Source: Escherichia coli
GTDB taxonomy: Bacteria > Pseudomonadota > Gammaproteobacteria > Enterobacterales > Enterobacteriaceae
Strand: one strand, 5' to 3'
Length of the DNA stretch: 64,000 nucleotides
Assembly (NCBI RefSeq): GCF_045037415.1
Contig: NZ_CP173438.1
Shown here in pieces: positions 18,001-21,000 of this stretch (its first letter is position 1; every line of letters begins with the position of its first letter). Made by a program: the position numbers.

Positions 18001-21000
18001 TGGGCATTTAATGCACCTGGTTTATCATGTTCTTCAATACGATAACCATAACATTCCAGTGGGTGTTCCATCGGATAAGCGGTCACTTTGCGCAGGCCAT
18101 CATCGAAAATTTCGCCAGTGCTAATTTCGACAATTTCCAGCGGATAATCGGTCCATGAGCCGCTAATCCGCAGCGCGGTCTCCACAAATTCACGGATACC
18201 GTGCGGACCATAAATCGTTAAGGGTTGGATAATGCCTGACATAGAACGACTGCACAGCAAGCCGGGTAAACCAAAGAGATGATCGCCATGAAGGTGACTG
18301 ATAAAAATCTTGTCCAGTTTTCCAGGGTTAAAGGCAGTATGCAGTAGCTGATGCTGGGTGCCTTCACCGCAGTCAAATAACCAAAGTCCGCTCTGGGTCG
18401 GATGTTGCAGGTTAAGCAATATTGCCGTGACATTACGCGTACGGGTTGGCACACCGGCTGAAGTACCTAAAAAAATTAATTCCATGAGTTCATCACGCTG
18501 CTGAAAATATTCCGGCTAGTATAAAGCAAACAGCACAAAGGAGCCTTCCATGATCGACTGGCAAGATCTGCATCATTCTGATTTATCCGTTTCTCAGCTT
18601 TATGCCTTATTACAACTGCGTTGTGCGGTATTTGTAGTGGAACAAAACTGTCCTTACCAGGATATCGATGGTGACGATCTGGAGGGAGAAAATCGCCACA
18701 TTCTCGGTTGGCATAACGGGACACTGGTGGCGTATGCGAGGATTCTGAAAAGTGACGACGAACTGCAACCCGTTGTGATTGGTCGGGTGATTGTCAGCGA
18801 AGCCTTACGCGGTGAAAAAATCGGTCAGCAATTGATGAGTAAGGCGCTGGAATCGTGTACTCGCCGCTGGCCGGAGAAGCCGATTTATCTGGGGGCGCAG
18901 GCGCATTTACAAAACTTTTATGGGCAATTTGGTTTCATCCCTGTGACCGATATTTATGAAGAAGATGGTATCCCACACATTGGGATGGCACGCGAGGTAA
19001 TTCAGGCGTAATCAATAACCCTTGTCTATAGTTAGTGACAGGTTTTACACAAATGGAGAACGAGAATGTCTAATCAGTTTGGTGATACACGTATTGATGA
19101 CGACCTGACGCTGCTTAGTGAAACACTGGAAGAGGTGCTCCGCTCCTCTGGCGATCCCGCCGATCAGAAATATGTTGAGCTGAAAGCGCGTGCAGAAAAA
19201 GCGCTGGATGATGTGAAAAAACGGGTTAGCCAGGCTTCAGACAGTTATTACTATCGGGCGAAGCAGGCAGTTTATCGTGCTGATGACTACGTCCACGAAA
19301 AACCCTGGCAAGGAATTGGTGTGGGTGCGGCCGTTGGGCTGGTTCTAGGACTGTTGCTGGCACGCCGTTAAAACCTCCCTACACCGGGGTACTGCATTTT
19401 TTTTGTCGTACCCCGTATAATGTGAGGCTTTTAACAGGGAGAGGTCCGCGTGCAATCACTTACTACGGCGCTGGAAAATCTACTGCGCCATTTGTCGCAA
19501 GAGATTCCGGCGACACCCGGCATTCGGGTTATCGATATTCCTTTCCCTCTCAAAGACGCTTTTGATGCCTTGAGCTGGCTGGCCAGTCAGCAGGTGTATC
19601 CGCAATTCTACTGGCAACAACGTAATGGTGATGAAGAAGCTGCCGTCCTGGGTGCGATTACCCGTTTTACGTCGTTGGACCAGGCACAACGTTTTCTTCG
19701 CCAGCACCCGGAACACGCCGACTTACGCATCTGGGGGTTGAATGCGTTTGACCCGTCGCAGGGCTATTTACTTTTACCACGCCTGGAATGGCGACGTTGT
19801 GGCGGTAAAGCCACGCTGCGGTTGACGCTATTCAGCGAAAGCTCCCTTCAGCACGATGCAATCAAGGCAAAAGAATTTATCGCCACACTGGTGAGTATCA
19901 AGCCCCTGCCTGGATTACATTTAACCACCACGCGAGAACAACACTGGCCGGACAAAACGGGCTGGACGCTATTAATCGAACTGGCAACGAAAACCATCGC
20001 CGAAGGCGAGCTCGACAAAGTTGTGCTTGCTCGGGCAACTGACCTGCATTTCGCAAGTCCGGTCAATGCGGCAGCGATGATGGCTGCCAGTCGTCGGCTC
20101 AATCTGAATTGCTACCATTTTTACATGGCCTTTGATGGCGAAAATGCTTTTCTTGGTTCTTCACCGGAACGGTTATGGCGGCGGCGTGACAAAGCGCTGC
20201 GTACCGAAGCGCTGGCGGGAACGGTAGCAAATCATCCTGATGATAAGCAGGCGCAGCAGTTAGGTGAGTGGCTGATGGCGGATGATAAAAACCAGCGCGA
20301 GAACATGTTGGTGGTGGAAGATATCTGCCAACGATTGCAGGCCGATACCCGGACGCTGGATGTTTTACCGCCGCAGGTACTGCGTCTACGTAAAGTACAG
20401 CATCTTCGCCGCTGTATCTGGACTTCACTCAACAAAGCGGATGATGTGATCTGTTTACATCAGTTGCAGCCAACGGCAGCAGTTGCTGGCTTACCGCGCG
20501 ATCTGGCGCGACAGTTTATCGCCCGTCACGAACCGTTCACTCGAGAATGGTACGCCGGTTCTGCGGGCTATCTTTCATTACAGCAAAGTGAATTCTGCGT
20601 TTCCCTGCGCTCAGCAAAAATCAGCGGCAATATCGTGCGGCTATATGCTGGCGCAGGCATTGTCCGTGGTTCCGACCCCGAGCAAGAGTGGCAGGAAATC
20701 GACAACAAAGCGGCAGGGCTGCGTACTTTATTACAAATGGAATAGTAATGAGTCGCATCATTACCGATTCATATCAATAATCTATTTTTGTAGCTCCTTA
20801 TACTTAGCCGCAATATTGATACCGGACAAACTCATGTCAGTAAGCGCATTTAACCGACGCTGGGCGGCGGTCATTCTGGAAGCATTAACGCGTCACGGCG
20901 TCAGACACATCTGTATCGCCCCTGGCTCGCGTTCTACACCGTTAACGTTAGCGGCGGCGGAGAATTCCGCATTCATTCACCACACCCATTTCGATGAGCG

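Follow-up and report, generated by a model that had tools for sequence, protein, structure and literature searches.

Only 78 bp separate elaB, annotated in the RefSeq entry for identical DNA as a stress response protein gene, from menF (isochorismate synthase), the first gene of the menaquinone operon. How is transcription of the two kept apart over so short a distance? The locus was studied in a stretch of 64,000 nucleotides from Escherichia coli (NCBI RefSeq assembly GCF_045037415.1, contig NZ_CP173438.1), referred to below as the window; positions are those of the window. A preliminary description, made from the sequence alone, had read the spacer as an elaB terminator fused to the menF promoter; the hairpin, the run of eight T (T8) inside it, the TATAAT that follows and its 28-nt distance to the menF start were all found where that description had placed them. 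We consider it probable, at roughly 0.6, that a single stretch of DNA provides both the hairpin at the 3' end of elaB mRNA and the -10 element of a menF promoter, forming one compact junction. The RNA side of this reading is considered first, followed by the promoter and the invariant arms of the hairpin.

The hairpin at the 3' end of elaB mRNA

A repeat search recovered CGGGGTAC (19385-19392) and GTACCCCG (19408-19415) as an 8/8 inverted repeat. The arms enclose the spacer TGCATTTTTTTTGTC (19393-19407), within which the T8 run occupies 19397-19404. The stem continues inward, GCA (19394-19396) pairing with UGU (19404-19406), and the true loop therefore consists of seven U and not of 15 nt. The 31-mer folds as RNA at -16.6 kcal/mol, against -5.0 +/- 2.1 kcal/mol for 200 dinucleotide shuffles (z = -5.5; no shuffle was as stable). 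In the K-12 version, where A replaces C19407, the stem comprises 12 contiguous base pairs and reaches -20.9 kcal/mol. Smaller alternative hairpins had been proposed as a check; the inward extension leaves the 7-U loop just described, and a weak 5-pair hairpin at 19373-19390 is also possible. The features of the junction are as follows.

19066..19371, + strand: elaB coding sequence, 101 aa, stop TAA at 19369-19371 (list of open reading frames, RefSeq annotation of identical DNA)
19374..19380, + strand: CCTCCCT box in the elaB 3' untranslated region (UTR), complementary to the AGGGAG of the menF Shine-Dalgarno (SD) region and weakly to the GGGG of the left arm
19385..19396, + strand: left arm CGGGGTACTGCA, at about -43 to -32 of the putative menF promoter
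19397..19404, + strand: T8 run, seven U in the loop, the last U pairing with A19396
19404..19415, + strand: right arm TGTCGTACCCCG (TGTAGTACCCCG in K-12), from the fold and the strain comparison
19416..19421, + strand: TATAAT, putative menF -10 element and, as UAUAAU in RNA, tail of the hairpin; its spacing to the start codon is fixed in every variant, the relatives without the hairpin included
19424..19435, + strand: GAGGCTTTTAAC, conserved segment after the -10 element; it can pair with GTTAAAACCTC (19367-19377) in Escherichia, and its GGTTTT is kept in all genera
19425..19429, + strand: region in which menF transcripts are predicted to start, +1 usually lying 6-8 nt past the -10 element; about 2380664-2380668 on the MG1655 minus strand
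19436..19444, + strand: menF SD region AGGGAGAGG, from the sequence and the cross-genus alignment
19450..20745, + strand: menF coding sequence, 431 aa, GTG start at 19450 (list of open reading frames, RefSeq annotation)

The in vivo 3' end of elaB mRNA has been mapped by Term-seq (Adams 2021, PMC7815308, Supplementary file 1). A "primary" end, defined there as one within 50 bp downstream of a gene, is listed for elaB at MG1655 position 2380674 on the minus strand, with read counts of 54,111 and 221,851 in two conditions and the printed sequence TAAAACCTCCCTACACCGGGGTACTGCATTTTTTTTGTAGTACCCCGTAT[A]ATGTGAGGCT (PMC7815308). This corresponds to window position 19419 on the + strand, 4 nt past the stem and inside the TATAAT. 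The conversion takes the 3' end as position 51 of each 61-nt row; in the sgrS row, used to verify this, the final U of the terminator tail does fall at position 51. With its mapped end only 4 nt beyond the stem, elaB mRNA has this hairpin as its 3'-end structure in vivo.

Two features of an intrinsic terminator were found at this site, a stable GC-rich hairpin and an RNA 3' end mapped in vivo at its tail. A U-rich tract directly after the stem was not found, the tail being UAUAAUGU, with 4 U in 8. The case for termination at the hairpin is further weakened on two counts: a consensus terminator scan requiring at least 5 T in 8 makes no call here, and intrinsic termination usually leaves a longer distance between stem and 3' end than the 4 nt seen here, which fit exonuclease trimming. 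Two routes would be consistent with this tail and this position of the end: weak intrinsic termination and subsequent trimming, or the trimming of longer transcripts back to a protective hairpin. The word "terminator" in the preliminary description is thus supported by the mapped end and left in doubt by the tail and the scan.

We favor the first of these possibilities. The message of elaB would end in the 12-bp hairpin at 19385-19415. Most likely this hairpin is an intrinsic terminator of a leaky, non-canonical kind, in which the RNA:DNA hybrid is weak because the tail UAUAAUGU has only A and U, and the released elaB RNA would be trimmed to 4 nt from the stem. At a minimum, the hairpin would act to stop 3' exonucleases. 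It is conceivable, with perhaps one chance in a few, that the hairpin is no terminator: transcription of elaB would enter menF and end downstream, through Rho acting on untranslated menF RNA or through an RNase, and 3'-to-5' exonucleases would trim the product to the protective hairpin. An end just 4 nt from the stem and a tail with no U-tract are what this alternative expects. However, elaB and menF are both absent from the table of Rho termination regions in Adams 2021, whose authors warn that Rho sites may be under-counted (PMC7815308), and the almost all-A/U hybrid of UAUAAUGU after a 12-bp GC-rich stem makes some intrinsic termination plausible.

Conservation of the hairpin was assessed with a scan for ElaB in one genome per species, which gave 80 loci, 46 of them with menF within a few hundred bases after elaB, and with a DNA-pattern scan of metagenomes, which gave 76 further loci. 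In all, 50 distinct Enterobacteriaceae spacer variants were aligned. The hairpin forms in 49 of the 50, at -10.7 to -22 kcal/mol, and is decayed only in Pluralibacter. The longest T-run within it varies from 2 to 8 across lineages, with T8 found in Escherichia and some Citrobacter; being lineage-specific, T8 is incidental. In Escherichia and Citrobacter it is simply the T-rich 5' side of the loop and no functional hallmark. The placement of the T-run in the loop, which had been flagged as atypical, is real, but the concern that it raised is largely resolved.

Within E. coli the spacer is near-invariant, five strains differing only by C or A at 19407 and by T8 or T7. The T7 allele was present in 2 of 30 evenly sampled assemblies (PU-1 and ECZP248) and may be a homopolymer assembly error; it would cut the putative -35/-10 spacer by 1 bp. 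The 201-nt region around the hairpin occurs once in 5421 of 5426 complete E. coli genomes. A second GGTAC-N10-GTACC match is present in the window at 8149-8168 and is treated as chance, 0.29 being expected and two or more occurring in 3 of 100 shuffles. Repeated palindromes of the repetitive extragenic palindrome or miniature inverted-repeat transposable element kind are present in multiple copies per genome; such an identity was rejected, as the region has a median of one place per E. coli genome and its arm motif recurs in the window at chance level.

TATAAT and the putative menF promoter

The hexamer at 19416-19421 directly adjoins the stem and matches the -10 consensus at 6/6, with 28 nt between it and the menF GTG. 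A lone TATAAT is not rare (about 30 are expected in the 128 kb of two strands), and its significance derives from conservation. TATA(A/C/G)T ends 25-29 nt before the start codon in all 50 variants, and TATA.T is among the invariant columns, together with GGTACT in the left arm and ACCC in the right arm. Four relatives, Enterobacter sp. R1, Atlantibacter, Franconibacter, and Cedecea, are without the GGGTAC hairpin; they keep (A)CCAC(G/A)TATAAT at the same distance from menF, as well as the downstream GGTTTT and the SD region. Cedecea, Atlantibacter, and Enterobacter sp. R1 retain the motif in the form ACCACGTATAAT, and the last of these has a canonical terminator, a 12-bp stem followed by T9, that ends 15 nt before the TATAAT. 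Since the hexamer is kept where the hairpin is missing, it is conserved independently of a role as terminator tail. This comparison of sequences provides the strongest argument for a -10 element rather than a mere tail.

Functional evidence comes from a study in which the DNA upstream of menFDHBCE was fused to a luciferase reporter (Schwieters and Ahmer, 2024; PMC11619404). Primer mapping places the Salmonella inserts across all of elaA-elaB, hence they do not discriminate between promoters. The Enterobacter cloacae insert pAMS362 (primers BA4081/BA4082) corresponds to positions 2169-2675 of our E. cloacae locus (L068); it starts at nt 169 of elaB, is without the elaB promoter, and includes the hairpin and the TATAAT. 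The E. cloacae menF fusion was expressed (PMC11619404). As pAMS362 is active without the elaB promoter, an E. cloacae promoter lies within about 230 bp upstream of menF.

The comparative evidence makes it very probable that TATAAT is the -10 element of a menF promoter, albeit a weak one. At the DNA level, the hexamer would serve the menF operon together with a poor -35 element; with a start near 19427, menF transcripts would have about 23 nt of 5' UTR, and the hairpin would occupy -43 to -13.

Several observations weigh against this assignment or against the dual role as a whole. At 16-18 bp spacing, the -35 candidates TGCATT and CTGCAT match TTGACA at 2/6 and GCATTT at 0/6. The TATAAT is preceded by CCG, with no TGn of an extended -10, and a consensus promoter scan makes no call at the hexamer. 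The pAMS362 fragment also carries 137 nt of the elaB coding sequence, and the promoter is not pinned to the TATAAT. The invariance of GGTACT and ACCC without compensatory change exceeds what pairing alone explains. Finally, the transcription start table of Kim 2012 lists no start near the expected 19427. In that table menF starts at 2378665 and is assigned 5' ends at 2378779 and 2378830 (PMC3415461, supplementary file 2), which are window positions 19336 and 19285, 114 and 165 nt upstream of menF and both within elaB. No -10 element is visible in the upstream sequence printed there, and these ends may have arisen by processing of elaB mRNA or from weak internal promoters. The earlier proposal of a menF promoter therefore keeps the conserved hexamer, its retention without the hairpin and the active E. 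cloacae fragment in its favor; the starts reported only inside elaB and a -35 match of 2/6 at best stand on the other side.

Two further observations concern the segment downstream of the hexamer. The sequence G(T/A)GAGG(T/C)TTTTAAC at 19422-19435 is conserved even in the relatives without the hairpin; if transcripts start there, they would begin with G and then a U-run, a context in which reiterative initiation is known. In Yokenella regensburgei (spacer at about 2307-2414 of locus L065) an extra perfect hairpin, GAACCTGCCTCAGGCAGGTTC, lies between GGTTTTT and the menF ribosome-binding site and lengthens the putative menF 5' UTR.

Invariant arms, SdiA and the CUCCCU box

The core pairs of the stem never vary across the aligned variants, and for that reason they are uninformative on RNA pairing. 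Only the innermost pairs vary, and these are compensated (at one pair, UG in 11, AU in 7, CG in 2 and UA in 2). RNAalifold on the 50 variants recovered four invariant pairs and no covariation; upstream the alignment is too indel-rich for an outer helix. Two readings of the frozen arms remain: they may have a dual role, forming a stem in RNA and positions -43 to -13 of a promoter in DNA, or they may be recognized by a protein. The arm spacing bears on this choice. By our own count, the start-to-start distance from GGTAC to GTACC is 18, 19 or 20 among genera, and on sequence grounds a variation of 2 nt suits a hairpin more than a rigid site for a protein dimer.

The CTG...CAG arms loosely recall lux-type boxes; lux-type and LexA boxes have the spacing CTG-N10-CAG. 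The CTG-to-CAG gap at this locus is 11 in most genera and 9 in one Citrobacter (L042), and neither K-12 nor the window has the CAG, K-12 having TAG in its place. A LexA or lux-type box was excluded by a gap of 11 or 9 instead of 10 and by the missing CAG in E. coli.

Recognition by a protein would make the palindrome mainly a DNA operator, an explanation that we regard as improbable. A dimeric regulator bound to GGGTACTGC...GCAGTACCC (-43 to -13) would repress the men operon, the candidate being SdiA or an SdiA-controlled factor. Arm cores that are invariant in 50 variants without covariation are what base-specific protein contacts predict. The E. cloacae menF fusion, which includes this region, was repressed 105-fold in a manner that was sdiA-dependent and independent of acyl-homoserine lactones (AHL; PMC11619404). 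An sdiA-dependent effect has been reported in Salmonella as well as in E. cloacae. The recognition sequence of SdiA is unsettled, and the regulation by SdiA may be indirect, which speaks against an operator. The E. coli menFDHBCE fusion was not SdiA-regulated (PMC11619404), yet the E. coli palindrome is perfect; the fusion is taken to be pAMS364, whose primers BA4085/BA4086 map to window 19268-19880. The varying arm distance and a CTG-to-CAG gap other than 10 also count against an operator, and the mapped 3' end demonstrates use of the hairpin at the RNA level.

The CCTCCCT box upstream of the hairpin raises the possibility of additional RNA structure. Its CTCCC core is kept in most genera. 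In a single fold of E. coli 19360-19450, GTTAAAACCTC (19367-19377) pairs with GAGGCTTTTAAC (19424-19435) around the hairpin. In other genera the upstream CUCCCU box pairs with the AGGGAG of the menF SD region, with co-changing flanks; examples are AATCCCCTCCC/GGGAGGGGATT in Phytobacter, CTTCTCCC/GGGAGAAG in Leclercia and ACCCTCCCT/AGGGAGGGT in Salmonella. Because the indel-rich alignment defeated RNAalifold for the outer helix, duplex energies of cognate and non-cognate upstream:downstream pairs were compared for 23 cluster representatives. Cognate duplexes averaged -18.5 kcal/mol and non-cognate ones -16.1 kcal/mol; every derangement gave a higher value than the cognate set, and in 10 lineages the cognate partner was among the three best. 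In the window, the box:SD duplex (-13.3 kcal/mol) equals the shuffled upstream control (-13.45 +/- 3.6 kcal/mol). An outer helix in E. coli, whether GTTAAAACCTC/GAGGCTTTTAAC or CCTCCCT/AGGGAG, was rejected; striking in one fold, it is no better than with shuffled upstream sequence.

Where it is strong, a box:SD helix would make the menF ribosome-binding site inaccessible in read-through RNA but not in transcripts from the embedded promoter, which lack the 5' partner. In many genera such sequestration could expose the read-through RNA to Rho, which favors the account in which longer elaB transcripts are trimmed back to the hairpin.

The box can also pair with the left arm. The sole terminator-like call near the hairpin is the weak 5-pair structure at 19373-19390, formed by the CCTCCC of the box and the start of the left arm and followed by ACTGCATTTT. 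In a Citrobacter-like metagenome contig (L086, 441-461, the sense strand being the minus strand of the locus) the box GTACTCCC pairs over 8 bp with the left arm GGGGGTAC, followed by TGCTTTTT. This alternative hairpin was scored terminator-like by the scan and is mutually exclusive with the main hairpin. Judged by sequence, Citrobacter-like lineages can use the "loop" T-run as the tail of a conventional terminator. The large hairpin is the relevant one in E. coli because the alternative has 5 pairs there and the curated elaB rows of Term-seq show only the 19419 end.

These structures bear on the suggestion, made in the preliminary description, that the element may equally be regulatory. In its fullest form this would be a cis-regulatory leader of menF: transcripts would start upstream, at the elaB promoter or inside elaB, the hairpin would be an attenuator, and the CUCCCU:AGGGAG helix would switch menF translation. 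The 5' ends at -114 and -165 that Kim 2012 assigns to menF (PMC3415461), the covariation of the box:SD helix in several genera with its lower cognate energies, and the canonical-looking terminator that a Citrobacter-like box can form with the left arm and the loop T-run all lend it something, and alternative structures do exist in other genera. However, a scan of 18900-19900 with the Rfam 15 covariance models gave no match even at E = 10, and the E. coli box:SD duplex is at chance level. A promoter accounts better for a TATAAT that is conserved in relatives without the hairpin, and the elaB-internal 5' ends, with no visible -10 element, may be processing products of an abundant elaB mRNA. We consider a leader of this kind very unlikely.

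A wider interpretation, put forward tentatively and with low confidence, treats the spacer as a conserved insulator and control module of the menaquinone operon. The hairpin would end elaB, the CUCCCU box would lock the menF ribosome-binding site in any read-through RNA, and MenF would be made only from the embedded promoter. The invariant arms may in addition bind a repressor, which would explain the 105-fold sdiA-dependent repression in E. cloacae.

The locus and comparable systems

The remaining features near the junction are the upstream neighbor of elaB and small open reading frames that overlap the spacer.

18550-19011, + strand: elaA open reading frame (list of open reading frames)
19422-19565, + strand: small mechanical open reading frame overlapping menF or the hairpin
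19345-19455, - strand: small mechanical open reading frame overlapping menF or the hairpin

The elaB transcription start of Kim 2012 (PMC3415461) maps to window 19040. It is preceded by C-TATAGT at 19026-19032. A C immediately before the -10 element is a feature of sigma-S promoters, and this sequence is consistent with elaB as a stationary-phase gene.

The elaB-menF junction appears to be an ordinary kind of terminator-promoter junction that is unusually compact, and it leaves current concepts unchanged. It offers a testable architecture for the transcriptional separation of a stationary-phase gene and the menaquinone operon across 78 bp. The sources examined contained no mapped promoter for the men operon, and the TATAAT is a candidate for its -10 element. 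Given the sdiA-dependent effect in E. cloacae and Salmonella, the junction indicates where a regulator of menF would have to act. In the spacer, a single sequence would moreover be under constraint at two levels, as a hairpin in RNA and as a promoter in DNA, and this double constraint may account for arms that are frozen across genera.

Among known systems, intrinsic terminators of E. coli share with this hairpin a GC-rich stem-loop just after the stop codon and an RNA 3' end a few nt past the stem; the difference is that here no U-tract follows, the tail being UAUAAUGU with the end at +4, and the sole T-run lies in the loop. Protective 3' stem-loops left by exonuclease trimming of Rho-terminated transcripts (cited in Adams 2021) are similar in their stable hairpin, an RNA end near its base and the lack of a U-tract. 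Unlike those, elaB and menF have no listed Rho-dependent region, and the hairpin is conserved in sequence as well as in structure. The TACTG...CAGTA present in the arms of many genera resembles lux-type and LexA-type palindromes; however, with its gap of 11 (9 in one Citrobacter) and TAG for CAG in E. coli K-12, the element is a member of neither class.

On the promoter side, the region resembles sigma-70 promoters with a consensus -10 and a weak -35 element, having a perfect TATAAT, a conserved 25-29 nt to the start codon and an active E. cloacae fragment. It departs from them in a -35 match of 2/6 at best, no extended -10, and a palindrome that fills the spacer and the -35 region. The closest comparison is the same locus in Enterobacter sp. 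R1 (L014), where a canonical terminator and a separate promoter occur with the same gene order, the same -10 element and the same downstream GGTTTT/SD region. There, the stem and its T9 stand apart, 15 nt before the TATAAT, whereas in E. coli the hairpin, with no T-run after it, abuts the -10 element itself.

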